Shown here: one piece after another, positions 3,243 to 44,346 of the stretch | How positions within the stretch are numbered: position 1 is the stretch's first letter | Layout of the letters: every line of letters begins with the position of its first letter | Source of the DNA: an uncultured Kofleriaceae bacterium | GTDB lineage: Bacteria; Myxococcota_A; Polyangia; HGW-17 | NCBI GenBank assembly: GCA_964516435.1 | Contig: CAZEZP010000078.1 | Coordinates: forward strand, 118,707 to 182,706 | Length of the DNA stretch: 64,000 bases | Direction: 5' to 3' | Position numbers and translations under genes: made by a program | The notes under the pieces: generated by a model | The model's input: the letters and a program-made list of their open reading frames with translations, nothing else | Told to the model about the DNA's origin: nothing | Database searches by the model: none

Positions 3243-3810
3243 CTAGAAGAACGCCTGGACGCCGAGATACCCGACATCCAGGATGAAACTGTCGTAATTG
3301 GACGCCGCGGGGTGGTCGTTATCACGCCAGATCCGGGTGATTCGCGCACCCACGTCCAGTGCCACGGACGAAGAGAGCGGAATGAGCATGCCCAAGGGAA
3401 AGATCACGCCGAAATCCAGGGTATCCTCGTCGGAAGCCTCGTAAGACGTGAAGAACACGCCCGCCTCGGCCCCGGCATACAGGTGCAGGACCGCCAGCGG
3501 CTGCACCAGCCGAAAGCCGCCGCCAATGGAAAAGACATGGCGCTCCACCGCGTCCCCGGAGATGGACTCGTAGCCCACGCGGCCGACGAAAACCAGGTAT
3601 GAACGGAAAAAGTATCCGAATTCCGGAGAAAAACGGAAGGTCTCGACCGTGGCGTCTCCGGCCGGCGAAGGAAAATCCATCTCGTGGGTCTGGAATTCGA
3701 TGACGCCGCCCGCGCTCATGGTGCCCGGCTGGAAGAGCATCGCCGACTGGGCCAGGGCGGGAACGGGAAAAAGAAGGACTGCGAAAAGAATCCACCACGT
3801 CCTGCGCATG
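3243..3810 (-). CDS. outer-membrane beta-barrel protein (OmpW/OmpA-like small OMP)
   Basis: Signal peptide MRRTWWILFAVLLFPVPALA, alternating amphipathic beta-strand pattern, and a C-terminal aromatic terminus ...GVQAFF. The start is chosen at the internal Met; the ORF finder extends it to 3932. Confidence 0.7.
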
Positions 3811-3926
3811 AAGATCTCCTGTCCGTCATCCCGGGACTTCCCGGGCCGCTGCCAATACGCGGGCAGTATAGAAGCATTCATGACCCGGAGCAAGCCGTGC
3901 AAAAAAATCCATGGCGATTTTCTCCT

Positions 3927-3954
3927 TTGCAAGAAAGGCGGCTTTCCATACTAT
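3927..3954 (+). promoter_or_regulatory. candidate sigma70 promoter for the EBP operon
   Basis: TTGCAA-N16-TACTAT lies about 45 nt upstream of the GTG start at 3996, in the divergent intergenic region that also contains the palindrome CCCGGGActTCCCGGG (3868-3883). Confidence 0.35.
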
Positions 3955-3995
3955 CCCTGCTTGAGCCCATATGCGGGCATTTTCGAGGTACGAGC

Positions 3996-5480
3996 GTGAA
4001 TTTCGATCCCCGGCGCCATCCCATCCTGTACGTGGACGATGAAACGGACAACCTCGACGTGTTCCGCTTCAACTTCCGCTCGCAGTTCACGGTGCTCACC
4101 GCGGCTTCCGGGGAGGAAGCGCTCCAGATCCTGCAGCGCGAGCCCGTGGCGGCCATCGTGTCCGACCAGCGCATGCCGCGCATGTCGGGCCTGGAATTCC
4201 TCTCCGAGGCCCGCAAGGTGCGCCCCCGGGCCATCGGCATCCTGCTGACCGCCTATCGCGACGTGGACGTCCTGATGGAGGCCATCCGGGCAGGAACCGT
4301 CTACCGTTTCGTCACCAAGCCGTGGAATGCCGAGGAACTGCGGACGCTGCTCCTGCAGGTGCTGGAACTGTACCACCTGCGCGAGGAGAACGAGCGCCTG
4401 GAACAGCGCCTGCGCGCCTATGCGGGCTACCTCGACAAGGAAGTCCACCAGGAGTTCAATTTCGGCAACATCATCGGCGAATCTCCGGGACTGGCGCGGG
4501 TGCTGCAGCAGATCGAACGCGTGGCGCCCACGTCGTCCACGGTGCTCATCCGCGGCGAGACGGGAACCGGCAAGGAACTGGTGGCGCATGCCATCCATCT
4601 CAATTCGCCGCGCAGCGACGGGCCCTTCGTGAAGGTGAACTGCGCCGCGCTGAGTCCCGGCGTGCTGGAAAGCGAACTGTTCGGCCACGAGAAGGGCTCG
4701 TTCACCGGCGCCGTCTCCCGCCGCCTGGGCCGCTTCGAACTGGCCGACGGAGGCACCCTCTTCCTCGACGAGGTGGGCGACATTCCGCCGGAAATCCAGG
4801 TGAAGCTCCTGCGCGTCCTGCAGGAGCGCGAATTCGAGCGGGTGGGCGGCGAGGAGACGATCAAGGTGGACGTGCGCGTCATCAGCGCCACGCACCGCAA
4901 CCTCGAGGCGCTGGTGGCGTCCTCGCAGTTCAGGCAGGACCTCTACTACCGGCTCAACGTGTTTCCCATCGAACTGCCGCCCCTGCGGGAGCGCCCCACG
5001 GACATCCCCCTGCTGGTGCAGCATTTCATCGCCCGATTCACCCCCATCACCGGCCGCCGCGTGGTGCGTGTGGACGATTCCTTCATGGATGCGCTCCTGT
5101 CGTATTCATGGCCCGGAAACGTGCGGGAACTGGAGAACCTCGTCGAACGGGCCATGGTGCTGTGCACCGACGGCGTCCTCACGCGGGCGGAACTGCAGTT
5201 CAATCCCGCCATGCCGCCCGAGGGAACGGCCGTGACCCCTCCGCCCGTCCAGGTGACGCCTGTGCCCATCGAAAACCGTCCCCTCTCGGAGCGCCTCCAG
5301 GAGGAGGAACGGCGCAACATCCTCAAGGCCATCGAGTCCGCTTCCGGAAACATGGCCGAAGCCGCCCGCATGCTGGGCATTCCACGCTCCACGCTGTACT
5401 ACCGCATGCGCAAGCACGATCTGCTGCACCTGCTGCCATACAAATGGACCCGCAATGCGGCGGATGAACCCGAGTCATGA
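3996..5480 (+). CDS. sigma-54-dependent Fis-family response regulator (NtrC-like enhancer-binding protein)
   Basis: REC domain (ILYVDDE ... SDQRMPRMSG), AAA+ sigma-54 activation domain (GESPGL..., GETGTGKE Walker A, GSFTGA motif, ESELFGHEKG), and a C-terminal Fis-type HTH (IPRSTLYYRMRKHDL). Start is GTG 3996 after GAGGT. Confidence 0.9.
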   Translation: MNFDPRRHPILYVDDETDNLDVFRFNFRSQFTVLTAASGEEALQILQREPVAAIVSDQRMPRMSGLEFLSEARKVRPRAIGILLTAYRDVDVLMEAIRAGTVYRFVTKPWNAEELRTLLLQVLELYHLREENERLEQRLRAYAGYLDKEVHQEFNFGNIIGESPGLARVLQQIERVAPTSSTVLIRGETGTGKELVAHAIHLNSPRSDGPFVKVNCAALSPGVLESELFGHEKGSFTGAVSRRLGRFELADGGTLFLDEVGDIPPEIQVKLLRVLQEREFERVGGEETIKVDVRVISATHRNLEALVASSQFRQDLYYRLNVFPIELPPLRERPTDIPLLVQHFIARFTPITGRRVVRVDDSFMDALLSYSWPGNVRELENLVERAMVLCTDGVLTRAELQFNPAMPPEGTAVTPPPVQVTPVPIENRPLSERLQEEERRNILKAIESASGNMAEAARMLGIPRSTLYYRMRKHDLLHLLPYKWTRNAADEPES

Positions 5481-6748
5481 AACCGCAGCATGCGCCCATC
5501 CTGTTCTTCGTGCTGGTGTTCGCCGGACTGGTCGTGTTCCTGCTGCTGCGGCCCGATGTCCGGGAAAGCCCGGAACCCTTCTGGCGCCTGGATCTCTCAC
5601 AAAAGAACGATGCGCCCCGGATTCCGGAGAACTGGGGCCGCGAACTGGACCTGAACGCCTTTCGCGAGCGGGATGGCGCCTACTGGCAGAAGACGCCATC
5701 GGGAATTCTCGTGCAGGCTTCGCTGGAGCCGGCTCTCCAGACGTTCTTCGAGCAGGAATTCAAGAAATACGAGTTGCCGTACGCTGCCGCCGTGGTCATC
5801 CACCTTCCGGACGGAGAGGTACGCGCCCTGGCCGGCCATTCCAGCCGGGATCCGCGTCTGACGGCCGGCGAACTGGCCCTGACCCCCTGGGCGCCCGCGG
5901 CCTCCCTGTTCAAGGTCGTGACCGCGCTGGCGCTGCTTTCGGTCCCCGGATTCGACCCGAACGAAACGGTGTGCTTTTCGGGAGGACAATCCGGACTGGC
6001 CGCCAGGCATCTGGAGGAACCGGCGCCGGGCGATCCAAAGGCCGTCTGTGAAAATTTGGAGATGGCTCTGGCCAATTCCTCCAATGCCGTGCTGGCGAAA
6101 CTCGCCCTGCGCCATCTGGACACCCGGCGCCTGCGGGATGCGGCCAGCGCCTGCGGTTTCAACCAGACTCTGCCCTTCGAATTCGAGGTGGGCCGCAGCG
6201 TGTTCCGCCTTCCCGACGACGGAGCCGATCCCATGGCGTTGCCGCTGGCCGCCGCCGGATTCGGGCACACCGCCATGAGCCCTTTCCATGCGGCGTGGCT
6301 TTCCGCCCTGCTGGCGGCCGACGGCGTGGCGGCGCCCGTGCACGTCATCCGCCGGGCGCTGGACCCGGATGGCCGGGAGATTCCCGTGAAGCATCCGCAA
6401 TGGGAAGCGCAGCCCCGCTTTCCCGATGTAAGCAAACTGCGCCGCATGCTCGCGGCGACCGTGGAGACGGGAACCGCCCGGGAGGGTTTCTTCCGCGGCG
6501 AGACGCGCCTGGTGCCGGTTCCCGTGGGCGGCAAGACGGGCACGCTGGCGCGCCAGGAGCCGGAAATCCTTACGTATACGTGGTTCATCGGGTATTTTCC
6601 CGTGGACGGCGCGCGCTGGGCGTTCTCGGTGCTGGTGGTGAACCCGGAGAAATGGCGCACCAAGGCGGCCCACGTATCCGCGCGTCTCGTGAACCGCCTG
6701 CTGGAACTCGAGGAAAAGGTCGCACCGACGAAAAAGACCGGAGAATGA
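5477..6748 (+). CDS. penicillin-binding-protein transpeptidase-fold protein (PBP/beta-lactamase superfamily), membrane-anchored
   Basis: N-terminal TM helix plus the active-site triad SxxK (ASLFK), SxN (NSSNA) and KTG (GGKTGT) at canonical spacings. ATGA overlap with the upstream EBP gene. Confidence 0.75.
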   Translation: MKPQHAPILFFVLVFAGLVVFLLLRPDVRESPEPFWRLDLSQKNDAPRIPENWGRELDLNAFRERDGAYWQKTPSGILVQASLEPALQTFFEQEFKKYELPYAAAVVIHLPDGEVRALAGHSSRDPRLTAGELALTPWAPAASLFKVVTALALLSVPGFDPNETVCFSGGQSGLAARHLEEPAPGDPKAVCENLEMALANSSNAVLAKLALRHLDTRRLRDAASACGFNQTLPFEFEVGRSVFRLPDDGADPMALPLAAAGFGHTAMSPFHAAWLSALLAADGVAAPVHVIRRALDPDGREIPVKHPQWEAQPRFPDVSKLRRMLAATVETGTAREGFFRGETRLVPVPVGGKTGTLARQEPEILTYTWFIGYFPVDGARWAFSVLVVNPEKWRTKAAHVSARLVNRLLELEEKVAPTKKTGE

Positions 6749-6751
6749 GAC

Positions 6752-9079
6752 ATGGGAACGTGGATGTTCGCCCTCCTGCTGACGGGAACGCTCGACTGCG
6801 GTTCGGGCGCACGGCTGGAAACCTCGCCCCGGCTCCGTCTGGTGGCGCCAGCCGGCATCGATTGCCCCCTGCCGCCGGACACGCAGGCGCCGGTGGATTC
6901 CTGCGCATGGCATGCGCCGGGCCGCCTGCTGCACGTGGTCGCGGGAAACCGCCAGACGCTCTTTCTCGTGCATTGCAACAAGAACAGCGGCGCGAACACC
7001 CAAAACGAAGGCATGTCCCAGGTGCGCGAGGGCCGCATCGATGCGGGACATCCCTGGCGTTTCGATGCCGCCCTGGGCGAAGTCTACCAGGAGGCCGGAC
7101 GCCACTGCGACGGCCGGCCGTTTCGGGTGCGCCGGGAGCGCTTCACGACGGCCGGCTGGGTTCCGGCGGAGGAAAACACGGCCAAGACCAGGGCCATCGC
7201 GAAAGAATACCAGGCCGTGCGCGGGCTTCCCCCCGGAATCCTGCGCAGGCCCTGGCTTTCTCCCCCCGTGCCGGATGTGATCGGGCCCGCTTCGGACCCC
7301 GACGAGGAAGCGCCTTCCCCCGTACGCCTTTCCGATGCCGACGCCGAAACGGCCTGGGTGGATGATGCGAAGACTCCAGGAACCACTCTCATCTACAGGC
7401 TGCCGGTTTCCTTTCCGCCCATGCGCGTCCTATCCATCCTGCCGGGACACGGCGGCAGCGAAAATGCCTTCAGGCGCCATGCCCGGCTCAAAAGCCTGCG
7501 GATCACGTCGGGAAACCGGGTTGTGCGCTTGCGCTTCCCGCAGGATCCGGCTTCCACGCCCGGATCGTTCCATGTTCCCTGGCACGTGGAATTCAAGGAA
7601 CCTCCAGGAAACTGCCTCGAAATCACAATCGAGGAACTGTATCCCGGCGAAAACGCCGCCATTTCCGAAATTTCCCTCTATACGGCCATGGATTTCGCGC
7701 CGGATCCGGTGGCGTTCTTCGCAGGGGCGGCGGCTTCGTGGCCCGCCGAAATCACACTGAAGACGGCTGGCGGCTTCACCGATGCCCAACTGGCTCAGGC
7801 ATGGCGCATCCTGCCTCCGGAGCAAAAAATAAAGATTGCAGCCGAAGTGATCCGCCGAACTTCCCCGGAACTGGTGAGCGCCCAACTGGAAATGCTGGCA
7901 TGGGCCGATGCTTCCCTCCTGCCGCGGCTGGCCCGTATCCTGGCGCGGCCGGAAGCCCGCGGCGCACTTCTGGAGAAGATGAAGACCGTCGCAGATGTGG
8001 AAATCCTGGCCCGCATCCTGCCACCGTTCCTTGCGGGCGGGGTTCCCGAAGCCGGCATTCTGGACGGCATTCTCGAAAAACGCCCGGAACTCTCCTCCAT
8101 GGTGCGCGATCACGTCCGCCCCGCCGACCGGGCCGCCCTGGTGGAGGCCTGGTGCGCGATTTTGCCCCAGCGCTCTTTCGTGCTGACCCACTGGGCCAAA
8201 AACGACCCGCGGGTCCACGAAAAAGCCGTGGCGTGCCTGGCGGCGGCGCCGGCGGCGAAAAGCCTGCAGGAGCGGCTGGACCTCCTGCGGGCGGCGTCCA
8301 TCCTGGGCGACCGGAAACTGCGGGCCCGCGTGAAGGAAGAACTCCGCAGGCCGGGTCCGGACGTCGTGCGCCTGCAGGGGCTCGCCACGCTCCTGCATCT
8401 GCAGCCCACGCCCCGCGAACTTTTGGAACTGGCCCGCACGCGGCGTCCCGATGCCCAGTGGGTGCTTCTGACCCACTGGCCCGAAAAGGCGCCCCTGACG
8501 CCCGAAATCGCGGGCCTCGCGAAAAGCCCGTGGCCGCCCGTCGCCCGGCAGGCGCGAAACCTGCTGGCATCCCGCTGCCATCCTTCATTTTTACCCATTG
8601 CTCGCACCATCCTCCTGAAAACTCAGCACGAGGACTGGTTCGACGTGCTGAATCGCGTGAAGGATTGCGGATACGACACCCTGCGCCGGGACCTTTTGGC
8701 CGTGTTCGCCCGCAAGGGGCTTTCGGCGGATGCCTTTGCAGCCCTGGCCCACGTGTTCGCGCTCGAGGGAGAAAGAAAGACGGCCGCCGCCGTGGCGCTC
8801 CGGATGCAGGATTTCTTCTCTCCCCGGCATGGCAGACGCTTCCTGGAGGAACGCGCACCGGAAGGCTCCCGCCTGCTGTGGGCGCTCGCCGCCTACGATC
8901 GCCCGGAAGACACTGCGACCTTCGCCGGCCTGGCGCGCCGCGACCTGCCGGAATCCCACCTGGAAATCCTCGCGTCCATTCTGGCGGCCCGCTGCAGAAA
9001 GCCGGTCGTCGTGCCCGAACGCGTATGGCGGCGGCCAGCCGAGTTTCACGCCTTCATCCGGGACTGCACGGGGTATTGA
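6752..9079 (+). CDS. hypothetical large protein with HEAT-like helical repeats (possible lipoprotein)
   Basis: 775-aa ORF with an N-terminal hydrophobic segment and Cys (LTGTLDCG), and repeated helical LARILARPEARGALLEKM-type HEAT-like segments. No catalytic motifs recognised. Confidence 0.5.
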   Translation: MGTWMFALLLTGTLDCGSGARLETSPRLRLVAPAGIDCPLPPDTQAPVDSCAWHAPGRLLHVVAGNRQTLFLVHCNKNSGANTQNEGMSQVREGRIDAGHPWRFDAALGEVYQEAGRHCDGRPFRVRRERFTTAGWVPAEENTAKTRAIAKEYQAVRGLPPGILRRPWLSPPVPDVIGPASDPDEEAPSPVRLSDADAETAWVDDAKTPGTTLIYRLPVSFPPMRVLSILPGHGGSENAFRRHARLKSLRITSGNRVVRLRFPQDPASTPGSFHVPWHVEFKEPPGNCLEITIEELYPGENAAISEISLYTAMDFAPDPVAFFAGAAASWPAEITLKTAGGFTDAQLAQAWRILPPEQKIKIAAEVIRRTSPELVSAQLEMLAWADASLLPRLARILARPEARGALLEKMKTVADVEILARILPPFLAGGVPEAGILDGILEKRPELSSMVRDHVRPADRAALVEAWCAILPQRSFVLTHWAKNDPRVHEKAVACLAAAPAAKSLQERLDLLRAASILGDRKLRARVKEELRRPGPDVVRLQGLATLLHLQPTPRELLELARTRRPDAQWVLLTHWPEKAPLTPEIAGLAKSPWPPVARQARNLLASRCHPSFLPIARTILLKTQHEDWFDVLNRVKDCGYDTLRRDLLAVFARKGLSADAFAALAHVFALEGERKTAAAVALRMQDFFSPRHGRRFLEERAPEGSRLLWALAAYDRPEDTATFAGLARRDLPESHLEILASILAARCRKPVVVPERVWRRPAEFHAFIRDCTGY

Positions 9080-9102
9080 AATAAAATTGCAATTTATTGT
9101 AA

Positions 9103-9732
9103 TCAGCAGGATTTATATGCGGGGTCTGGAACACCAACGGGTATCACATACAATACCTTTTCGCTGGTGACGGACAACCCCACCAGCGGCTGCAGTTCCT
9201 CTTCCGTGAACGCCCCCACCGGCACCGAGCCGAGCCCTTCCGCCACCGCCTGCAGATGGAGGTTCTGGGCGATGTGGCCGGCCTCCAGGAAAAGATACTG
9301 GACGCTGCGGTCCTTATAGCGCGGCATGATGCGCTCGTGAATGCCGGTGAGAAGAAAGACCGCCGCCCCCTGGCGCACCCACGGCTGGGACAGGCAGGCA
9401 TGCATGAGGTCCTTCGCGATGTCCCGCTCCCTTTCGCAGGACAGGGCATGGCGGGCGTGCCGGTAGCGATACAAGCCGGGCTCAATGCCCTCCACGCGGT
9501 GCGCCGAAACCAGGATTTCCACGGGATAGCAACTGCCCGCGGACGGCGCCGTGCGGCACCCGCGGCCCGCTTCGTCGAACACCCGCCCATCGGCCGCGAA
9601 CAGCAGGTTCGAAAGTTGACGTTGCGTGATGGGATCGGGAGAAAAATGGCGGACGCTTCGGCGCGCCAGCAGGACATTCTTCAAGGGTGTCTCGTTCAAT
9701 TCGGGCGGCGGCAGGGAAATCCATTCATTCAT
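9103..9732 (-). CDS. nitroreductase-family protein (SagB-type/NADH oxidase-like)
   Basis: LLARRSVRHFS motif typical of nitroreductase N-termini, with a conserved C-terminal GxxxQNLxLxAxxLGLG-like segment (GHIAQNLHLQAVAEGLGS). Start chosen at MNEW; the ORF is open to 9792. Confidence 0.7.
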   Translation of the reverse strand: MNEWISLPPPELNETPLKNVLLARRSVRHFSPDPITQRQLSNLLFAADGRVFDEAGRGCRTAPSAGSCYPVEILVSAHRVEGIEPGLYRYRHARHALSCERERDIAKDLMHACLSQPWVRQGAAVFLLTGIHERIMPRYKDRSVQYLFLEAGHIAQNLHLQAVAEGLGSVPVGAFTEEELQPLVGLSVTSEKVLYVIPVGVPDPAYKSC

Positions 9733-9752
9733 TCTTTTCTTCTTTCTCTTCT

Positions 9753-11072
9753 TTATATCTGAAACTTCATGGAATCGATTGCTTTTTTCCATTCATTGCC
9801 ATTGAAATCGATTCCCAGTTCCAATGCAATCAGACGCACAAGAAAATACATGGCTTCCGGTGGGGAGACAATGGAAAACAGGTGGTGCACAAAGGGATGA
9901 TCGAGCGCCAGCGCCCATTCCCCGCAAACATCCGGTTTCGGAAAGCGACGGCATGCCACGCGGCGCGCCACTGGCAGCGCGGTCGCTGGAAAACCGGGAA
10001 GTTTTAGTTCAAAAACCCCCGCAGATGGCGGCATTTCCCGGTCGTCGGATGCAAGGACGAACATGGGCCAGCATTCCATTGGCGCAGGGTCGAGAAAAAC
10101 CAGATGCAGTCGGCCCCCGTTTCCCGGAAGAAACCGCAGGAGGGATGCTCCGATGCGCTCCAGTTCGGAAAACGGCCCCGCAGCCTCCAGCATGTGCGCC
10201 ACACAGGCCGGTTTTTCATCCGCGGGCATGGATTTTTCATCCTGCGCTTTCCTCTCCAGTTTCATGGCGTCCTGAAAGTCGCGCGCCACGGCGGAAGCCG
10301 CATTGCCGGCATCCATGCGGAAGCGGGAATCCCAGTCGAAATGATGGAACGCTACCGGACATGGCTGGCTCTGGACCCAAAAACCCTTATGGAACAGCCG
10401 GATTTCCCCATCGGGATGATCCAGCCGGTACAGGACGCACTCGCCCCACGGACGACTGAGCCTGCAGGCGGAAAGCGCGCCCGCAGGCGTCGAAGGCCAC
10501 GAATGCTCCCTGCCATTGACGAACACCCGAAGTTCCGGCCGCGCGGGACGGCTCTGCAGCACCCTGGCCAGACGACCCTCCAGCGTTTCGGGCGTGAAGC
10601 CGCGCAGAAACCACTGGATGCGCTGCCCCGGCGACGGTTCCGACAACACATGGATCTCGGCCGATCCATCCGACAGCAGCCAGGCTTCCAGCGTGGCGCC
10701 GGCAGCATGCGTTCGCCACAGCGTCAGAATGCACCCATCGGGCGGCCCGACCGGAAGGGAAATCTCCATGCGCGTCCAGTCCGTCGAATCCGTTTCCCAG
10801 ATGCCTTTCTCCAGCAGTTGCTTCAACTGCGTGAAATCGGGACCATCCGCGGCATGCGCGAACTGTGCCACCGCAAAACCGGCCCCGACGGGATCCCAGA
10901 ACGTGCGGATGTCCAGATCCCGCGCGCCGGCGGCCACGGCTCCCTGCAGCACCTGGAAAAGCGCATGCTCCAGGCTCCTCTCGTCCGCATCGGGCGCCTG
11001 CACCGCCTGCAAACCGCCCTCGACACGGGGAAACAGCCATTCCCGCAGAAGGGAGAATCCATCTTCTTCCAT
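9753..11072 (-). CDS. hypothetical protein (last gene of a 4-gene coupled operon)
   Basis: 439-aa ORF with high-GC coding statistics, 3 nt downstream of the AAA gene stop. No recognisable motifs. Confidence 0.5.
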   Translation of the reverse strand: MEEDGFSLLREWLFPRVEGGLQAVQAPDADERSLEHALFQVLQGAVAAGARDLDIRTFWDPVGAGFAVAQFAHAADGPDFTQLKQLLEKGIWETDSTDWTRMEISLPVGPPDGCILTLWRTHAAGATLEAWLLSDGSAEIHVLSEPSPGQRIQWFLRGFTPETLEGRLARVLQSRPARPELRVFVNGREHSWPSTPAGALSACRLSRPWGECVLYRLDHPDGEIRLFHKGFWVQSQPCPVAFHHFDWDSRFRMDAGNAASAVARDFQDAMKLERKAQDEKSMPADEKPACVAHMLEAAGPFSELERIGASLLRFLPGNGGRLHLVFLDPAPMECWPMFVLASDDREMPPSAGVFELKLPGFPATALPVARRVACRRFPKPDVCGEWALALDHPFVHHLFSIVSPPEAMYFLVRLIALELGIDFNGNEWKKAIDSMKFQI

Positions 11073-11075
11073 GGA

Positions 11076-12668
11076 TCACGCTTCCGTTTCCAGTTCGAGC
11101 ATCGCCCGGCGGCGGGCCCGTTCCTCCCGCACCCATTCCCGCACCCGGGCATTCACCAATTCTTCCTCCTCGCGCGCGCTGGCTGCTTTCACGAAATCCA
11201 TAACGTATTGATATTGCTCGAAAAATTCGCGCGCCGAAAGATTGCGTCTGGTTTTGCGAAGCATTTCCCGGCGGGCATCCGGATCGGCTTCGAAAAATCC
11301 ATCGGGATATTCCACGTCGTCCATCAGCGCGCACAGCCGACGGGCGAAATGGGCACAGTCACGGCCCGAAAGCCCGGCTGCGGCTGCCTTTTCACCGAAT
11401 TCTCTCCACTGGCGCGCCGAAAGCCCCGCGTGCGGCGCGTACTCTTCCCCCAGCAGGCGGTCGCGCACCAGCACGGTGTACTGCTGGGGCGTCACCGGGC
11501 CTTCCAGCAGATAGGGCTGCTGCGCCAGACGGCTGATGGTGGCGTCGTCCATCTGCATGTAGTTGGCGTCGCAGATCAGGAACCACTGTCCGTTGCCGGG
11601 AAGAAGCGTGCCATCGAACAGGCCGAACGCCGCCCCCAGGATGCTCTTTTCCTCGGGGCGCAGGTCGCCGCCGGAACGCGTGCCGAACGCCGTGTCGATA
11701 TCCGGCCAGTAGAAGCCCACCACGCCGGGAAACCCCTGCAGTTCGCTGGTGAAACGCTCGATGAGCGCCGAAGCCGAGGCGTTCTGGTATGCCGAGGCCC
11801 AATCGGTGCGCCGGATGACGCAGAACTTGGCTGAAAGCCCCACCGCGGCTGCGCGCTCCAGCAGATGCCGGCCCAGCGCATGCGCGCTGGCCGTCTTGCC
11901 GCATCCCGGCTTTCCCAGCGCGAACAGGATGGGATTGATGCGCTTGGGATTCGTTCCCGAACGGGGATCGTAGGCCAGCACGTCGCGCACCAGGCGGCGC
12001 CCCGCGGCCAGGAATTCCTCGTTGCCCACGATGTCCTCCATCCGGACGGGAAGAATGGGCTGTGGCTGGATTTTTTGAATGTCTCCAAAGGGTGTATAGA
12101 AAAACTCGAACAATTCGAAGGAATTCGATCTGATTCCATTCAATGCCCCGTGGTAGCGCGGATCCATGGATTGCATGATGCAGAAGGACGCCATGAGATG
12201 CGCATATGCACACAGCGCCTCGTCGGCGGCATATCCTTTCTGCACGTGATCCTTCACGAACAGGAATGCGTCCTTCAGGAATACTTCCAGCAGTGGATCC
12301 CGAAGCAGAATGGCGCGGGTTTCGGCCTGTGGAAGCGCGTTGACGGTCCGCACGCGGCCGCGGGTGACCTCGTCCATGCCCCGGGCCAGAAACGATGCGG
12401 CCGCATGCACGGCCACCAGGCGGTTCAGGGGAAGCGGTGCGTCACCGGCGGCATCCCCCGTGCTGCGCTGGAGAAATCCCTGCATGGCCAGCAGCACGCC
12501 GCCGGCGCGCTCCAGCATGCCGAGCACCGCATGGCCCCGGGGTCCCAGCCCATAGGGCCAGCGTTCCCAGGCAACCAGGAATGCCGGCCAGCCGGCCTGC
12601 AGGATGGCGGGTGCCAGGTCGGCCTGCAGCGGTGCGAACTGTTCCACGTGAAACGTGAAGCGCGTCAT
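11076..12668 (-). CDS. AAA+ family ATPase with about 230-aa N-terminal extension
   Basis: Walker A GKPGCGKTASAHAL and a Walker-B-like FYWPDIDTAF segment. ATGA overlap with the upstream gene. Confidence 0.65.
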   Translation of the reverse strand: MTRFTFHVEQFAPLQADLAPAILQAGWPAFLVAWERWPYGLGPRGHAVLGMLERAGGVLLAMQGFLQRSTGDAAGDAPLPLNRLVAVHAAASFLARGMDEVTRGRVRTVNALPQAETRAILLRDPLLEVFLKDAFLFVKDHVQKGYAADEALCAYAHLMASFCIMQSMDPRYHGALNGIRSNSFELFEFFYTPFGDIQKIQPQPILPVRMEDIVGNEEFLAAGRRLVRDVLAYDPRSGTNPKRINPILFALGKPGCGKTASAHALGRHLLERAAAVGLSAKFCVIRRTDWASAYQNASASALIERFTSELQGFPGVVGFYWPDIDTAFGTRSGGDLRPEEKSILGAAFGLFDGTLLPGNGQWFLICDANYMQMDDATISRLAQQPYLLEGPVTPQQYTVLVRDRLLGEEYAPHAGLSARQWREFGEKAAAAGLSGRDCAHFARRLCALMDDVEYPDGFFEADPDARREMLRKTRRNLSAREFFEQYQYVMDFVKAASAREEEELVNARVREWVREERARRRAMLELETEA

Positions 12669-13432
12669 GGACCTGCCTCCGGAAACTCGGGTCTCAGGTA
12701 GGGAAAGGTTTCGCGAAAATGCTCGAAATCACTTGAACTTCCGCTCAGCACCAGCCGTCTCCGGCGCTCCACGCGATATCCCGCGCGGCGCCGGAATGCA
12801 TGCAGACGGTCTGGCGGAAAAATCCCGGGATGCTCGAAAAACGGATCGTCGCAGATATCGGGTCCTTCCATGGCGGACACCATTTCCATCGGAACGTGCA
12901 GCAGCAGCGCATCTGGATGCGATTCGAAGAAACCGCGAAAAGCATCCGGGCAGACCCGTGCGCTCCATATCGGCCCCAGCCGCACCCAGGATGCCGATTC
13001 CATGCGCACACCGGAATTGGCCAGCGCCTGCACGAATCCCAGTTCGGCCTCCTGGAGGAAAGCATTTTCAAAAAAATCCAGAATGGCCGGTTTCACGAAG
13101 TCGGATGCCGGCGGCAGGGAAAACGGATCCGGACCCGCAGTTCCGCGAACCTCGAACACGCATCGATGCCGGCCCCAGACGTGGTGCACGGGGTCCACGC
13201 GATCCCGAATCCATTCCATGCGTGCACTCCCGCCAGTTGCGCCGAGCCAATCCACCCGCGAGCGGGGCGCCGGGGCATGGCGGGAGCCGAAGTGCAGCGG
13301 CATGCCGGAAACGGAATGAGCGAAATTCCCCGCATGCAGGCAGGCATCCGCCGCCGCCCGGGCATCCGGTGCGCGCACATCGGTGCGCAGGTGGTTCAGC
13401 AGATGGGATGCGGCCTGGGAAAAATCGTTCAT
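12665..13432 (-). CDS. hypothetical protein
   Basis: 255-aa ORF, translationally coupled (ATGA overlaps) to both neighbours. No recognised motifs. Confidence 0.5.
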   Translation of the reverse strand: MNDFSQAASHLLNHLRTDVRAPDARAAADACLHAGNFAHSVSGMPLHFGSRHAPAPRSRVDWLGATGGSARMEWIRDRVDPVHHVWGRHRCVFEVRGTAGPDPFSLPPASDFVKPAILDFFENAFLQEAELGFVQALANSGVRMESASWVRLGPIWSARVCPDAFRGFFESHPDALLLHVPMEMVSAMEGPDICDDPFFEHPGIFPPDRLHAFRRRAGYRVERRRRLVLSGSSSDFEHFRETFPYLRPEFPEAGP

Positions 13433-14493
13433 TCCCCGGTTTTTTCACGTTCTTCGAGCGCCTTCTGCAGGATGCGCTCGAGTTGCTGCTGGCGGATTTC
13501 CTTTTCGGCGGCGAGATTGCGTTCCACCAGATCCTCCACCTGCCGGTCGTAGATGTGCATGTCGGCCACGATCTGCTCCACGTTGCGCGTGAGGAACAGC
13601 GAGGTTTCCGATGTGATCACCGCCACCTTGTTCATGCTTTCCTTGAGGCTCTCCATGCTCGCCGTCACCTGCAGCGACAACTGGCCTGCTTCCGCCAGCG
13701 TGGCCAGGCGCGCCGCATGCTGGCGCAGTTCATCGAGCACCAGTTCGGCGGTATCGTGGATGATCGTCATGTTGGCATGCAGATTTTTCGAAATTTCCTC
13801 GAAATGGCGGTTCATCTTCATGATGGAATCGAGATGGGACAGGGCATGGTCGAACATCTGCATTTTTTGTCCATGTTCCCACACCAGGCGGTCCACCTCC
13901 ACCAGTTGCGCTTCCAGGGTGCGGTATTCCTCGGAACTGGCATCCTGAATCTGCGACAAGCGGCTCATGATCTCTTCCCGCGCCTGCTTGAGCTCCAGCA
14001 CCAGATCCACGAACTGCCTCTTGCCCTTGGCCGCCTCCACCTTCTTGGACTGCAGCGTCTTCTGGTCTTCGTGAAGCGCGGAAATGGTCCGCTCCACCCT
14101 GCGCAGGTATTCGGAAATCTTCTTCAGATGACCATCCGCGATGTCGATCTTGGCCGCCAGCAAATCCGCCAGCGGCCGGCGCCGGAAGGGACGCCCCAGC
14201 AGGGGAATCCGGCCCAGCGCGCCGCGCAGGCCCCTGGAGAAGCCTCCCTTCTCTCCGGACGCCATGGTCTTGATTTCATCGAGCAGGCTGCGCTGTTCGG
14301 CGATTTCCCGGTTCATGTCCGCCGCCAGTTTCTCGTGCTCCTCCTGCAGGCGCTTGAGTTCCTGCAATCCATCCTGATGCCGGGCGCGATACTGCTCATC
14401 GATTTGCGCCGTCGCCTCCCGGCTCCACCGGCTGCCGTCGAATTCCACCTGCTTCTTGAGAATTTCCTCGATGTGCGACGCTTCGTCCGTCAT
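13429..14493 (-). CDS. coiled-coil protein (TelA-like? uncertain)
   Basis: Highly charged heptad-rich sequence throughout. Likely start is MTDEAS, preceded by a GAAGGAAGGGAAGG Shine-Dalgarno; the ORF is open to 14598. Confidence 0.55.
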
Positions 14494-14673
14494 GGATGCC
14501 TTCCCTTCCTTCGCCCGCGGGCGGTGCCTGCATTCTAGTGAAACATCCCGGCGCAAATCAATTGCGAAATGCTCCGCCCGCAGTTTCATCTCCTGCAAAT
14601 ACCCGAGGCCTTCCCACTTTCGGGATCGGCGGTTCCCCCTTTCATTTCCCGGGTCTTTGGCATGGACACAATC

Positions 14674-14697
14674 ACCCGTTTCGTTATAGAAACGGGT
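14674..14697 (+). promoter_or_regulatory. 9-bp stem/6-nt loop hairpin in the serS 5' leader
   Basis: ACCCGTTTC-gttata-GAAACGGGT lies about 25 nt upstream of the serS start. There is no U-tract, so a terminator is unlikely. Confidence 0.3.
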
Positions 14698-14720
14698 CTC
14701 GTGAAAGGACGTGTTTCCTC

Positions 14721-16004
14721 ATGATCGACATCCGTTTGCTCGTGGAACAACCCCAGTGGCTGCGGGAGCGTCTTTCCACCCGCGGCGCCAACGCCATTTC
14801 CCGCCTGGACGAACTCGAAGGCGTCCATCTGGAATGGAAAGCCCTCAAGCAGGAAATCGACAACCTCAAGCATGAGCAGAATCAGCGCAGTTCCCGCATG
14901 AAGGAACTCAAGGGCGAAGAGCAGGCCGCCCTGCGCGCGCAACTGCGCGAACTGTCGGACATGATTCGCGATAAACAAAAAATTCTGGCGGAACTCGAGG
15001 AAAAACGGGAAAGACTGCTGCTCTTCATTCCCAACATCCCCCAGGAGGACGTGCCCGTGGGGGACGAGTCCTGCAACCAGGTGGTACGTTCGTGGGGCCA
15101 GCCGCGCACCTTCGATTTCCCCGTGCTGCCGCACTGGGACCTGGGCGCAAGACTGGGAATCCTGGATTTCGACCGGGCCCAGAAGATGTCGGGGTCCCGC
15201 TTTTCCGTACTCATCGGGGCCGGAGCCCGGCTGGAGCGCGCGCTCATCGATTTCATGCTGGATTTCCACCGGAAGGCCGGCTACGTGGAGATTTCCCCGC
15301 CGCTCCTGGTCAAGCGCGAAACCATGGTGGGAACCGGACAGTTGCCAAACCTCGAAGCCGATGCCTACAAGACGGCCGACGAGGATCCCTACTACCTGAT
15401 CCCTACGGCGGAAGTGGTGCTGGTCAACCATCATCGGGAAGAAATACTCGAGCCGCATCAACTGCCCATCCGCTATGCGGCCGCCACGCCCTGCTTCCGT
15501 TCCGAAGCCGGTTCCTACGGGCGCGACGTGCGCGGGCTCATCCGCCAGCACCAGTTCTACAAGGTGGAAATGGTGCAGATCACCACGCCCGAAACGTCGG
15601 CGCAGGCCCTCGAGGACATCACCCGCCAGGCGGAAGGCATCCTGCAGGCGCTGGAACTGCCATACCGCGTCGTACTTCTTTCCACTGGAGACATGGGATT
15701 TTCCAGTTCCAAGACATTCGACCTGGAAGTATGGCTACCGTCCGAAGAACGCTACCGGGAGATTTCCAGTTGCTCCAACTGCGGCGATTTCCAGGCGCGA
15801 CGCGCCCGCATCCGTTTCCGCACCGAAGCCGGAGCAAAGCCGGAACTCGTCCACACGCTCAACGGCAGCGGGCTGGCGGTCGGGCGCACGCTTCTTGCAC
15901 TGCTGGAAAACGGCCAGCAGCCGGATGGCACCATCGTGCTTCCCAGGGCGCTTTCTCCCTATCTGGGCGGAGGCACGCGCATCACATCGAAAGGAATCGA
16001 GTAA
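14721..16004 (+). CDS. serS: seryl-tRNA synthetase
   Basis: N-terminal coiled-coil arm MIDIRLL...[10 protein letters not shown] and a class-II aaRS core with motifs [21 protein letters not shown] and [16 protein letters not shown]. Start is ATG 14721 inside a longer read-through frame. Confidence 0.92.
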
Positions 16005-16027
16005 CTCCTCGAATATGGAGGAAAATC

Positions 16028-16819
16028 ATGCGCTTTCAACGACGTCAATGTGCCGGCATCGAGTACTACGTGCAAATCGATGAGCAGGGAAAGATCCTGG
16101 CCGTATCCCAGTCACTGGAACTGCTCATGCAGGGCCGCGGCATCCAGGCGCGCGTCCTGCTCGACAAGATCGAGACTTCCCAGGGGAAGATCCTGCCGCC
16201 GGTGCCGGTCGGAAAAATCGTGGCCGTCGGCCTCAACTACAAGGCCCATGCCGAGGAGACGGGAAAGGAACTGCCCAGGGAGCCGCTTCTTTTCATGAAG
16301 CCCTCCACGGCCGTCATCGCCCACATGGATCCCATCCTGCTGCCGCCGGACAGCGAGGAAGTCCATTTCGAGGGAGAACTGGCATTCATCATCGGCAAGA
16401 CCGCCAAGGACGTCCCCGTGGAGAAGGCAGCCGATTACATTCTCGGATACACCATCCTCAACGACGTCACCGCGCGCGACATCCAGCGCCGTGAGGGAAA
16501 GTACACGCGGGCCAAGGGCTATGATACCTTCGCGCCGCTGGGTCCGACCGTCGTCACCGACATCGATCCGATGAACTGCGTCATCGAAACCCGCGTCAAC
16601 CATGAACTCAAGCAGCACAGCCCCACGAGCGACATGATTTTCAGTCCATTCCAGTTGCTGAGTTTCATTTCCTCCATCATGACGCTGCAGCCCTTCGACG
16701 TCGTCACGACCGGCACCCCCTGCGGCGTGGGAGCGATCCATCACGGCGATACGGTGCGCATCAGCATTTCCGGCATCGATACGCTGGAAAATCCGGTCCT
16801 TTCCCGCTCCATGCGCTGA
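16028..16819 (+). CDS. fumarylacetoacetate hydrolase (FAH)-family protein
   Basis: FAH-fold motifs VGLNYKAHAEE, FMKPSTA, EGELAFIIGK and TPCGVG. GGAGG sits 8 nt upstream of the ATG. The real start lies inside a 575-aa read-through frame. Confidence 0.85.
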   Translation: MRFQRRQCAGIEYYVQIDEQGKILAVSQSLELLMQGRGIQARVLLDKIETSQGKILPPVPVGKIVAVGLNYKAHAEETGKELPREPLLFMKPSTAVIAHMDPILLPPDSEEVHFEGELAFIIGKTAKDVPVEKAADYILGYTILNDVTARDIQRREGKYTRAKGYDTFAPLGPTVVTDIDPMNCVIETRVNHELKQHSPTSDMIFSPFQLLSFISSIMTLQPFDVVTTGTPCGVGAIHHGDTVRISISGIDTLENPVLSRSMR

Positions 16820-16946
16820 TTCGCCCGGCGGCCCCGGATTGCAAATCCTCCTTCATCCGCATAGCATGCAATTCACACAAAAGGGGAAAAATGCCGCACG
16901 GAGTCCCCGTGCATTGCAAGGCATGCCCCTTTGAAGGAAAATTCCG

Positions 16947-18485
16947 ATGAACATTCCTTTCACTCACATCCAGAGTACCCTGCAACCCTATTCGAAAAAA
17001 ATTTTCTTCGCCCTCACACTGATATTCCTGCATACCCTGGCCGGTTTCCTCCTCATTTTCTTTTCCCGCAAGGTTCAGAGGGACAGTTTTCCCGTCTACA
17101 TCATCTTCATCTTTTCCTTCCACCAGGTTTTTTCCATCTTCGATGACTGGATTCTTTCCGGCCTTTCCCACGCCTGGACGCGCGATACCCGAAGGAACAT
17201 CCTGCAGCAGTACATCCACAAGAAAATGACCATCACCGGAAACAGCCAACACGACTGGAACGAAATCCAGAAAGAAATCTACTGGCTTGGCGAATCCATC
17301 TTTTCCTTCTTTCGGGGCACGTTCCGGCGAGTTCTCCAGATTGCCGTCTTCTCGGCCTTTCTCCTCTATCTTTCACCTGCCCTCTTCCTGTATTGCTTTA
17401 TATTCTTCCTGCTGCTGCTGCTCTTCGGTTTTCTTCATGGCCGGATCATCAATTCCATCCGTTCCCGCTACATCGACACGGAAAGCCGCCTCTCGGTATT
17501 CGAACTGGAGGCGGCCCGTTACCGTGACATCATCGAAATTCACGGCAAAGGTTCGTTCATGGAGAAAATCCACGCATCATTCCTGGATAAATCCATGAAG
17601 AACGCCATGCTTTTCGATCGCATCCGCATGACCCATCATCCCATCCAGGTCATCCTCTTTTTGATTACCGTTGCGTTCATCTTCTACACTGGCAATAACT
17701 GGGTCCAGCAGGGATCCCTGTCTCCCCGGGATTTTCATTCCTTCCTCGCGGGACTTTCGCTTCTGTACACGCCGCTCAGCGGCATTTCGAGCGACGTGGG
17801 AGCTTTCCTGAGCCTGCAGCGGATGAAAAATCTTTCATTCATCCTGCAGCGAAGCGACATTCCGGAATGTTCCTCCATTCGAAATCTCGTGTCCCTCTCC
17901 CGCATATCCATGAAAAATGTTTCTTTTTCCTATGATTCGACTCCCCTCTTCGTCCGGATGAATCTGGAAATCACGGATCCCATTGCAGGTTTTCGCGGCA
18001 GCAACGGTTCCGGAAAAACCACGTTGGCGTTGCTCCTCGCCCGCATCCTTCATCCAAGGGAAGGAAGCATCCGCTTTCTGGACAATCAGAACGAGGAACG
18101 CAGCGACATCGCTATTTCCTATATCGACCAGAATGGTTCCGTATTTTCCCTGAGTCTGGCAGACAATCTCTTTCTCTCCAGAATCGGTGAACTCCACTTC
18201 CTCCAGCATTTCCATGAACTGACGGAAAAAGAATCCGTGGGACCGGAAATTATCTCCGCGGGCCAGAAAAAAGCCGTTTCCATCGAGAGGGCCCTGCAGC
18301 ATCCCTGTTCGCTCCTCATCATCGATGAGCCGGAAAATGCCCTGGATTCCGAAAAAAAACAGATATTGAGAGAAATCCTCCTGGAAAAAAGCCAGAAGGG
18401 CGTCAGGATCATCCTGTTCAGCCACGACGATTTTTTCCTGAAAATTTGCTCAAAAGTCGTGGATATGCAAACCTTGCGGAACTAG
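16947..18485 (+). CDS. ABC transporter permease/ATP-binding fusion protein (exporter type)
   Basis: N-terminal polytopic TM domain, then Walker A GSNGSGKTT, signature ISAGQKK, Walker B LLIIDEPENALD and H-loop FSHD. Noticeably lower GC than its neighbours. Confidence 0.8.
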   Translation: MNIPFTHIQSTLQPYSKKIFFALTLIFLHTLAGFLLIFFSRKVQRDSFPVYIIFIFSFHQVFSIFDDWILSGLSHAWTRDTRRNILQQYIHKKMTITGNSQHDWNEIQKEIYWLGESIFSFFRGTFRRVLQIAVFSAFLLYLSPALFLYCFIFFLLLLLFGFLHGRIINSIRSRYIDTESRLSVFELEAARYRDIIEIHGKGSFMEKIHASFLDKSMKNAMLFDRIRMTHHPIQVILFLITVAFIFYTGNNWVQQGSLSPRDFHSFLAGLSLLYTPLSGISSDVGAFLSLQRMKNLSFILQRSDIPECSSIRNLVSLSRISMKNVSFSYDSTPLFVRMNLEITDPIAGFRGSNGSGKTTLALLLARILHPREGSIRFLDNQNEERSDIAISYIDQNGSVFSLSLADNLFLSRIGELHFLQHFHELTEKESVGPEIISAGQKKAVSIERALQHPCSLLIIDEPENALDSEKKQILREILLEKSQKGVRIILFSHDDFFLKICSKVVDMQTLRN

Positions 18486-19120: not shown

Positions 19121-20155
19121 TTACCCGATTTTGCCGTTTTCCACCTGCCACGCGTGAGAAAAATCCGGATTCTTCCGTCTTCCGGTGATGATCGAATCCA
19201 CACCGAAGTCCTGGATGACACGAACGATGTTGGAAACACGGATTTCATCCATTTCGCTTTCCAGATCATCGAGCAGAACCAGGCAATTTTCGTTCTTCTC
19301 CCGCAACAGGGAAAGGAAGGAAAAATGAAAGGCCAGCAATAGCGCCTTTTTTTCCCCGTTGCTGAAAAAATGGCGGATATCGCGGGAATCCTTCCTGAAA
19401 AGAATCTCATCCTTGTTGCAACCGAACAGGGATTTCTTCTGCATCATCTCCTGCTCGATGGCGTTTTCGGGAATGGAGCGCACCTGATACCGTATTTCCG
19501 TTCCCAGCAACTTCGCGTTCTTTTCGGAAAGGAAGAAATGAAATCTATCCTTCAATGTTTCTTCCAGGAATTTTTTCCGAATGGAGGAAATGGACTGGCT
19601 CGTTTCCGCGAATTCTGCATGATCGATTTGCAGCAATTCCCGCATCTTCCGCGTGCTGGAAAGAAGAATTTGAATGCGCCGGTTGCGCAGATGCTGGTAT
19701 CGATTCAACAAATGGATGTAATGCTCATCCATGTAGGAAATGTATCGGTCGATGATGGAACGGCGGTATTCCAGACTCTGCAGAAAATTTGCCGTATCTT
19801 CAGGTGAAAAATACAGGATGCGCCTGCCGCGGATGAAATCCAGAGCCCCTACGGTCTTTTCATCCCGGAAAAAACTCTTTTTATTTTCTCTTCTCGAGTA
19901 TACGATTTCGCATGAATTTCCGCTGATTTCGGCCTGGATGCGAAAAAAATCCTCCCTGTCTTTCACGCAATCCTGAAAACTCTTCCGGTTGCGGAAACTC
20001 TTGCTCGTGTAGATGGAGAAAACGGCTTCCAGAAAGTTGGTCTTTCCGCTGCCATTGTCTCCATACAGGTAAACGCTTTGAACTTCTTCAGGAAAAGAAA
20101 GATGAAGATGCGCGTAATTGCGGAAATGCGTCAGCGTGATGGATTGCAATTCCAT
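19121..20155 (-). CDS. recF: DNA replication and repair protein RecF
   Basis: N-terminal LTHFRNY...YGDNGSGKTNFLEA Walker A and the SMC-like signature FSNGEKKALLLAF...LLDD near the C-terminus. Confidence 0.92.
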   Translation of the reverse strand: MELQSITLTHFRNYAHLHLSFPEEVQSVYLYGDNGSGKTNFLEAVFSIYTSKSFRNRKSFQDCVKDREDFFRIQAEISGNSCEIVYSRRENKKSFFRDEKTVGALDFIRGRRILYFSPEDTANFLQSLEYRRSIIDRYISYMDEHYIHLLNRYQHLRNRRIQILLSSTRKMRELLQIDHAEFAETSQSISSIRKKFLEETLKDRFHFFLSEKNAKLLGTEIRYQVRSIPENAIEQEMMQKKSLFGCNKDEILFRKDSRDIRHFFSNGEKKALLLAFHFSFLSLLREKNENCLVLLDDLESEMDEIRVSNIVRVIQDFGVDSIITGRRKNPDFSHAWQVENGKIG

Positions 20156-20184: not shown

Positions 20185-21297
20185 TCAGTCGATGCGGATG
20201 GGCATGAGAACAGCCAGGAAATTCGACGTATCCACGGGCTTGAAAAGCACGGGACTCTTGGAACTGTGCAGGAACATGGAAAATTCCTTGCCCCTGATTT
20301 TATTGATGATCAGTTCGAAAAATTTGATATTGAAAGCCAATTGCATGGGTTCTCCCACGTAATCGACTTCGATTTCCTCACGGCCCTTCCCTTTGATGGT
20401 ATCGATGCCGCTCATGTGAACGCGGTCCTTCTCTACCTGCAGAATGACGCCGGATTCGGATGAATCGAAGAGCAGACTGATGCGCTTGAGTGCCTGCAGG
20501 AATTCATCCTTGGGCACCACCAGGCGGTTCTCCTTGTATTGCGGAATCACCTGCTCGTAAGGTGGAAACTTGGAATCCACCAGTTTGATATTCATTTTTG
20601 TCGTATCTGTTTTGATTCCAAGAATTTTATTATCACGGTCATAATATAAACCAATATTTATATTATCATCAGACAAGAGTTTGATGATGTCGTTCACTCC
20701 CTTGCGGGGAATGATGATTCCCGAGGATACCTGAAATTTTCCTTCATAAGGATATTCCGCCAAGGCCAGTTTGTGCCCGTCCGTGGCTACCGTTCTGGCG
20801 ATGTTCTTGTCCGTGATGAAATACACGCCGCACAGATGCGGCTTGCTTTCGTCGGTTCCGGAAGAAAACAACGTCAAATCCAGCAGTTCGCGAAGGATGA
20901 ACGCTTCGAAGGAGGTATACAGACTATCTTCGTAAAATGAAAACGTCGGATAATCTTCATCTCTCAAAGATGTAATTTCAAATTGACTTTTTTGACTAAA
21001 TATATTTACTATTGTATCATTTTTTTGAATTTCTATTTCATTTCCAGACAAATTGCTGGCCAGTTGATACAAGAGTTTGCCGTTGACCGTCATCGTGCCG
21101 GGCTGAAACACTTCGCCATTGAATTCCGAAACGACGGAAGTGCTCATATCCGTGGCCTTGCATACGATTTTGCCATCGCTTTGCGCCTGGATCTGGATGT
21201 TGGACAGAATGGGCTGGATGCTCGCGTTTCCTTCGGATATCTTTTGGGGCATGAAAATTCCGTTGAGAAACGTGGACTTGTTCACTGATATTTTCAT
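20185..21297 (-). CDS. dnaN: DNA polymerase III beta sliding clamp
   Basis: 370 aa with the three-domain clamp pattern (MKISVNKSTFLNG...; ...PVLFKPVD...AVLMPIRID). Located immediately upstream of recF as in the canonical order. Confidence 0.92.
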   Translation of the reverse strand: MKISVNKSTFLNGIFMPQKISEGNASIQPILSNIQIQAQSDGKIVCKATDMSTSVVSEFNGEVFQPGTMTVNGKLLYQLASNLSGNEIEIQKNDTIVNIFSQKSQFEITSLRDEDYPTFSFYEDSLYTSFEAFILRELLDLTLFSSGTDESKPHLCGVYFITDKNIARTVATDGHKLALAEYPYEGKFQVSSGIIIPRKGVNDIIKLLSDDNINIGLYYDRDNKILGIKTDTTKMNIKLVDSKFPPYEQVIPQYKENRLVVPKDEFLQALKRISLLFDSSESGVILQVEKDRVHMSGIDTIKGKGREEIEVDYVGEPMQLAFNIKFFELIINKIRGKEFSMFLHSSKSPVLFKPVDTSNFLAVLMPIRID

Positions 21298-44250: not shown

Positions 44251-44346
44251 AATTTTGCTGTAGAGTTCCTGCTTTTTAATAATCTTCCAAAAAAATGGTT
44301 GTCTGATTTGAAAAGTTGTGAAAATACTCAGTCAAAGGGGTTTGTC

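Follow-up and report, generated by a model that had tools for sequence, protein, structure and literature searches.

A stretch of 64,000 nucleotides from contig CAZEZP010000078.1 of an uncultured Kofleriaceae bacterium (hereafter the window) carries four genes on the minus strand, between positions 9753 and 14493, that form one real operon under a single conserved sigma-70-type promoter. In order of transcription they encode a long helical protein (CC), an alpha/beta protein (U255), a divergent AAA+ ATPase (AAA) and a protein (U439) that, judged through its orthologues, is a degenerate paralogue of the HSP90 chaperones. We propose tentatively that the four genes encode a cytoplasmic protein-remodelling module acting on CC or on clients bound to CC, a reading that we regard as plausible rather than probable. 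A preliminary description of this DNA had singled out a tight operon centred on an AAA+ ATPase and claimed by no described pathway, and this view stands, with profile databases assigning the genes to none. The AAA+ and GHKL/HSP90 superfamilies are known; the combination of genes and the CC and U255 families are missing from Pfam, NCBIfam, PADLOC, PHROGs and the literature searched.

Relatives were collected by scanning one genome per GTDB species with an AAA profile, which returned 161 relatives. The loci retrieved numbered 80 (individual loci are given by L-numbers below). The first gene of the operon, encoding CC (13429-14493, minus strand, as for all genes of the operon), has a product of 354 amino acids with its start set by homologue alignment. 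The mechanically called open reading frame (ORF) opens at a TTG at 14598, and 20 aligned homologues open at the Met encoded at 14493, which makes the latter the likely start. This product had been described as 355 amino acids long, one too many, while the sizes given for the ORFs of U255 (12665-13432; 255 amino acids), AAA (11076-12668; 530 amino acids) and U439 (9753-11072; 439 amino acids) were correct. The junction sequences also confirm the layout described earlier, in which four overlapping genes on the minus strand are linked by two ATGA overlaps and a 3-nucleotide gap and are followed by a nitroreductase gene 20 nucleotides downstream. The ATGA overlaps lie between the CC and U255 genes at 13432-13429 (gaATGAac) and between the U255 and AAA genes at 12668-12665 (ccATGAcg), the AAA and U439 genes are separated by the gap at 11075-11073 (TGA-tcc-ATG), and the TAA of the U439 gene is 20 nucleotides from the nitroreductase ATG at 9732. 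Gene order and the 4-nucleotide overlaps were identical in L088 and L089, which are the closest relatives. Each gene of the operon has homologues elsewhere at E<1e-30, and the ORFs are therefore real genes rather than chance reading frames.

The promoter (14532-14561, minus strand) consists of a -35 element TTGATT, an 18-nucleotide spacer and a -10 element TAGAAT, is located about 39 nucleotides upstream of the CC ATG (14493) and was the sole promoter-like site within 8900-15000. The -35 and extended -10 elements (TTGnnT...TTTCACTAnAATG) were kept in seven loci in which the other intergenic DNA could not be aligned. In the 13 loci searched, the upstream DNA contained neither a sigma-54 nor a sigma-32 consensus, and expression of the operon is apparently constitutive. 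None of the four operon proteins contained a transmembrane segment.

The sequence of AAA identifies it as a divergent classical-clade AAA+ ATPase. Residues 251-380 matched Pfam PF00004 at 22.9 bits (E 1.3e-4), which passes the gathering score of 21.2 by a small margin. The nearest PDB sequence was Msp1/ATAD1 (E 0.006), and a profile of 31 family sequences reached NVL alone in the PDB (7.5e-4); matches this marginal indicate that the family is very divergent. The Walker A motif (G252-K-P-G-C-G-K-T259) was invariant in the 31 sequences. When aligned to Msp1, the pore loop Y294-Q-N fell on W-Y-G with Y294 opposite the pore-loop Trp, N369 was opposite the sensor-1 Asn, and in the second region of homology (SRH) R380 stood as an arginine finger opposite the second Arg of the RR pair, with S379 at the position of the first. 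The lid motif was S434-G-R-D. An invariant Asp (D367) precedes the sensor-1 Asn in the family. The Walker B motif is non-canonical, as Y320-W-P-D-I-D325 (encoded at about 11694-11711) aligned to F-I-D-E-I-D of Msp1 and the DE pair is replaced by P322-D323. This replacement was present in every member examined (31 aligned), and the surrounding YWPDIDTAF was invariant or nearly so.

AAA is therefore like Msp1/ATAD1 and Vps4 in its Walker A form GxPGCGKT, its pore aromatic (Y294 against KWYG of Msp1), N369, R380 and an SGxD-type lid, and in having one AAA module behind a substrate-recognition N-domain. It differs from them in lacking a transmembrane anchor or a recognisable MIT domain, in the WPDID that takes the place of the Walker B DE and in the Ser at the first SRH arginine, and the overall similarity is marginal. 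The N-terminal extension, previously put at 230 amino acids, is real and spans about 230-250 amino acids before the Pfam domain starts at residue 251. This N-domain of about 245 amino acids has a motif of its own, P(Y/F)G, that occurs family-wide (P38-Y-G40 in the window) with G40 invariant, and it matched no known domain in the searches run. A co-variation of the N-domain with the presence of the partner genes was considered and rejected, as P(Y/F)G and G40 are invariant even in the Nannocystaceae, where partners are lacking.

U439 alone had no match in Pfam, NCBIfam or PADLOC, and a profile of its clade (the window clade) gave no signal against the PDB or Escherichia coli HtpG. The position after AAA is occupied in other lineages by a gene of a GHKL family whose proteins have 460-620 amino acids. 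These orthologues matched the Pfam domains HATPase_c_3 (best 4.9e-11) and SACS (1.2e-9), HtpG (3e-10) and TRAP1 (4e-10) in the PDB, and the NCBIfam sacsin ATP-binding domain at 59.9 bits, above its cut-off of 50. The link from U439 to HSP90 is transitive, from the window clade to the orthologues with intact ATP-binding motifs (the active clade) and from these to HtpG. Comparison of the window and active clades by hhalign gave 96.6% (E 6e-10), which rose with improved alignments to 99.1% (E 4e-19) over 438 columns, and the active clade aligned to residues 19-459 of E. coli HtpG at 98.9% (E 2e-17). The homology thus emerges solely through the active clade, since the window-clade profile finds nothing by itself. 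The statement in the preliminary description that the non-ATPase partners have no recognisable motifs accordingly needs amending for the 439-amino-acid protein, in which a degenerate HSP90/GHKL paralogue was detected by way of its orthologues.

The active clade resembles HSP90 (HtpG, TRAP1, Grp94) and sacsin in having full Bergerat motifs (ExxxNxxDA, DxGxG and GxxGxG). The ATP-binding residues N35, D67, G69, G71, G100 and G102 were invariant in 12 active-clade orthologues, and a TL(T/S)R(D/E) segment aligned to the HtpG catalytic loop NVSRE (Arg336). For the C-terminal dimerisation domain, a conserved motif, NHPLV..L...P..A, gave only a weak collinear match to residues 584-616 of TRAP1 (domain independent E-value 7); the hhalign alignment with HtpG ends at 459. 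The GHKL family (440-620 amino acids) differs from HSP90 in being shorter and in scoring about 45 bits where the equivalog cut-offs are 371 and 455; the orthologue in L021, for example, reached 44.3 bits against 371 for HtpG (PRK05218) and 46.7 against 455 for HSP90 (PRK14083). The window clade departs further, as it has lost the catalytic loop and the G2 box together with the catalytic Glu and the Asn that binds Mg. In the N-box of U439 the GHKL catalytic Glu is replaced by Q40, the Mg-binding Asn by G44 and the Asp by an Ala, the G1 box is degenerate (AHAADGP), the G2 box aligns to a gap, and the catalytic-loop segment of the middle domain is deleted in the clade. With these residues lost from the N-box, G1, G2 and catalytic loop, U439 is predicted to have lost canonical binding and hydrolysis of ATP, and its alignment identifies it as a full-length degenerate paralogue of HSP90 type, a putative pseudo-ATPase.

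CC, a soluble all-helical protein, was the most conserved member of the operon. Identities between the window and L004-L008 were 75-78% for CC, 57-60% for AAA, 39-42% for U255 and 34-40% for U439. The AlphaFold2 model of CC (predicted local distance difference test score, pLDDT, 69; predicted template modelling score 0.55) contained five long helices at residues 25-78, 108-181, 188-266, 273-328 and 334-353, including a hairpin of two 75-residue arms. The loop at 79-107 was modelled with low confidence and carries a motif, (R/K)(I/V)P(I/L)L...RP(L/I)xxLL, that is kept across phyla. CC is hydrophilic throughout, with a maximum 19-residue Kyte-Doolittle mean of 0.66. Its fold matches were generic long helical bundles, and sequence and profile searches of the PDB returned generic coiled coils and nothing else. 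When the CC profile was run with HMMER against 1.84 billion representatives in an exhaustive search, just 96 relatives were found. The profiles PF05816 (TelA), PF04012 (PspA) and PF03357 (Snf7) did not match CC at E<=1 or any of 43 diverse or remote members at E<=0.01.

U255 is an alpha/beta protein of 255 amino acids and a shortened member of a family whose proteins are usually about 340 amino acids long. The family comprises at least 134 cluster representatives, including FIV42_19220 of the cultured Persicimonas caeni. Its gene was directly downstream of that for CC in every studied locus that has both. A U255 profile matched nothing in the PDB or Pfam and a Foldseek search with the U255 model gave no significant match; as modelled, U255 is a protein without a confidently matching fold.

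The arrangement of the genes across relatives was established from a hidden Markov model census of the fetched loci and from gene-order tables, and conservation of the gene neighbourhood, which the preliminary description had raised as a point to check, was strong. CC, U255 and AAA genes were linked in genomes of at least five phyla (Myxococcota, Eremiobacterota/Vulcanimicrobiota, Armatimonadota, Planctomycetota and UBP9). The full order CC-U255-AAA-GHKL occurred in the window clade, which consists of metagenome-assembled genomes (MAGs) of Myxococcota, in further Myxococcota MAGs, in an Eremiobacterota MAG (L021), in Armatimonadota (L041) and Planctomycetota (L079), and in two MAGs deposited as Burkholderiales (L017 and L019). 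In a neighbour-joining tree of AAA the linked arrangement occupied all deep branches, which makes it probable that the unit of four genes is ancestral. The usual fourth gene encodes a paralogue of the HSP90 family, and this gene too is probably ancestral to the unit.

In two MAGs of Polyangia/Deltaproteobacteria a gene for a patatin-like phospholipase (DUF3336 and Patatin domains) is located directly upstream of U255-AAA-GHKL in the usual place of CC (L013, 330-1796; L016, 2210-3676), which could be coincidence or the exchange of CC for a membrane-active partner. A candidate alternative fourth gene in Vulcanimicrobiota (c24) was rejected as an ordinary Zn-alcohol dehydrogenase, and a candidate replacement for CC (c85) was rejected as it resembles a membrane-anchored beta-rich protein that ends a neighbouring operon, possibly for type II secretion. 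Loci of Nannocystis, Enhygromyxa and Plesiocystis (Nannocystaceae; L023-L083) have AAA paralogues with no CC, U255 or GHKL gene nearby; these paralogues are often beside argS and a gene for a DUF4442 protein and retain the N-domain motif and WPDID. One AAA relative (L086, contig of P0018) carries the label of an archaeon, Candidatus Nitrosotenuis. It is on a contig with PilM, T2SSE, T2SSF and response regulator genes, and as this content looks bacterial the label is probably a binning error.

The module was flanked by housekeeping genes that are specific to each lineage and syntenic within it. In the window these were serS, a gene for an FAA hydrolase, recF and dnaN; Eremiobacterota had rpoD and dnaG together with a gene for a pseudouridine synthase, L088 had rpoA with ribosomal protein genes, and NuoE/F-like genes flanked the module in L089 and other loci. 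A search of 72,556 plasmids found no relative, and the sole match in IMG/VR was an unrelated AAA protein of 24% identity. The proposed module is taken to be chromosomal and vertically inherited.

If the four proteins do act together in protein remodelling, AAA would form a ring that threads or pulls a protein substrate, and it retains the Walker A motif, the pore-loop aromatic, sensor-1 and one arginine finger. CC, as an elongated helical bundle, would be the substrate or scaffold of AAA. CC is conserved to an extreme degree, which suggests that it self-assembles or has many fixed contacts, and its conserved basic, proline-rich loop and its C-terminal helix would be candidate docking elements. 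U255, always beside CC, may be an adaptor or regulator of CC, and the HSP90-like protein may, as a dimer, clamp and hold the client. For U439 of the window clade, only the part of a non-catalytic holder or scaffold would remain, because its nucleotide-binding and catalytic-loop residues have been lost. A stoichiometric complex, which the preliminary description had taken tight translational coupling to imply, can reasonably be inferred from the coupling together with the co-conservation of the genes.

A number of observations weigh against such a module. The main caveat for any motor model of AAA is the altered Walker B motif, as with PD in place of DE the protein may be a poor ATP hydrolyser, or a switch rather than a motor. 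A fixed stoichiometry of four subunits is not universal, since the Vulcanimicrobiota loci have CC-U255-AAA with no GHKL gene within 8 kb. CC-U255 were located apart from AAA in UBP9 (L018, L020 and L033), in P. caeni (L084, with CC at 7797-8912, U255 at 9001-10029 and AAA at 15256-16932) and in L053, and the large AAA radiation of the Nannocystaceae has no partners nearby. Confidence in the predicted fold of CC was only moderate.

Among other explanations, we consider unlikely a membrane-remodelling pair of the ESCRT-III/Vps4 or PspA type, in which CC would polymerise on the inner membrane face and an Msp1/Vps4-like AAA would disassemble it. The locus is like the ESCRT-III/Vps4 and PspA-AAA+ associations (PMC11237479) in that a protein with a modelled helical hairpin is encoded beside a classical-clade AAA ATPase; it differs from them in that CC is not a member of the PspA or Snf7 profiles and in that those associations lack the U255 and HSP90-like partners of this module. 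A tellurite or toxic-anion resistance operon of TelA type, or a phage-shock (PspA) operon, has the size and all-helical nature of CC in its favour and nothing more. The preliminary description had raised a TelA- or PspA-like identity for CC, which the profile searches given above do not bear out; NCBIfam likewise gave no match and no ter or psp genes were located nearby. This explanation is already close to refuted. A pathway modifying a small molecule or peptide, with U255 (as a T-fold-like protein) and a SagB-type nitroreductase as its enzymes and the ATPases as accessories, is very unlikely as well. The nitroreductase (9103-9732, minus strand; 209 amino acids) matched PF00881 at 3e-28 and TIGR03605 at 1e-31 (109.6 bits; cut-off 78.4) and is probably co-transcribed with the operon in this genome. 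It follows the module in the window and in L089 only and was absent from L088, L004-L009 and all other clades. By gene order it is thus not a conserved member of the module.

An anti-phage or conflict system, in which CC would be a ClyA/XaxA-like pore-forming effector restrained or released by the two ATPases, appears quite unlikely. The sacsin-like GHKL ATP-binding domain of the U439 orthologues is shared with TmtA of the Tiamat system in PADLOC (E 1.6e-12 over about 100 residues). The likeness, however, is confined to this domain, as the TmtA models have 1,063-1,782 positions of which the N-terminal 100 or so alone align, U439 of the window is unmatched and the context of the module is not a defence island. 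PADLOC 2.0 models matched none of CC, U255 or AAA meaningfully, and the sole match among the window proteins was IetA (E 0.048), on the Walker A motif. CC lacks the hydrophobic head or tongue of ClyA-type toxins, as its hydropathy maximum indicates, and is the most conserved component of the module, not the most variable. The flanks are core housekeeping genes with synteny within lineages, and the plasmids and viral contigs searched held no family members.

Outside the operon, several features of the window were recorded. Genes for recF (19121-20155) and dnaN (20185-21297), on the minus strand, are located about 5-7 kb from the module. At 18-22 kb the GC content is down to 0.45-0.48 and the cumulative GC skew is at its minimum, which suggests a replication origin nearby. 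No dnaA gene was adjacent to recF/dnaN, and DnaA boxes of the E. coli type were not enriched (4, with 6 expected, and none of them near 21 kb). A second GC dip (0.486 in a background of 0.56-0.58) occurred at 44000-46000, with near-consensus DnaA-box-like 9-mers at 44427 and 44676. A fused ABC transporter with a transmembrane domain and an ATPase (16947-18485, plus strand) has a GC content of 0.48-0.54 against about 0.62 around it and may have been horizontally acquired. Convergent with the nitroreductase gene is a plus-strand gene (6752-9079) for a protein of 775 amino acids in which NCBIfam NF047619 places an NADase-type glycan-binding (discoidin-like) domain at residues 189-307 (41.4 bits; cut-off 38); the remainder of the protein is long and without assignment. 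A sigma-54-dependent response regulator gene (3684-5480, plus strand) overlaps by 4 nucleotides a gene with a penicillin-binding-protein transpeptidase domain (5477-6748), an unusual pairing. ARAGORN called a 97-nucleotide tRNA-Arg(CCT) at 2069-2165 on the minus strand where Rfam found no tRNA, as in the rest of the window, even at E<=1, and the call probably represents a false positive, if not a very atypical gene.

Among the window proteins, only AAA and the nitroreductase were matched meaningfully by Pfam, NCBIfam, PADLOC and PHROGs, and no described equivalent of the gene set was found in these databases or in the literature searched. To our knowledge, bacterial HSP90 (HtpG) is thought to act without dedicated co-chaperones and classical-clade AAA ATPases with operon-encoded substrates are rare in bacteria, and we know of no description of a bacterial HSP90 paired in an operon with an AAA+ ATPase. 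It is possible, if doubtful, that the module is the first bacterial HSP90-centred machine of several components with dedicated partners encoded in its operon, namely an AAA+ unfoldase whose active site has been re-wired, a conserved helical protein as scaffold or client, and an adaptor without a confidently matching fold, and that it is ancient, spread over several phyla and absent from current family databases and defence catalogues. That the HSP90 subunit of such a machine became a pseudo-ATPase in some lineages, including this one, is proposed with the same reserve. The unit spans phyla and joins an AAA+ ATPase and two orphan proteins to a paralogue of HSP90, and it could lead to a new ATP-driven remodelling pathway. 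The cultivable P. caeni, which has CC, U255 and AAA, would offer a tractable entry point. The active and degenerate HSP90 subunits constitute one natural experiment, and the AAA family, with its Walker B DE pair replaced throughout, constitutes another. The finding would also give an annotation to four or more families now labelled hypothetical in hundreds of MAGs.

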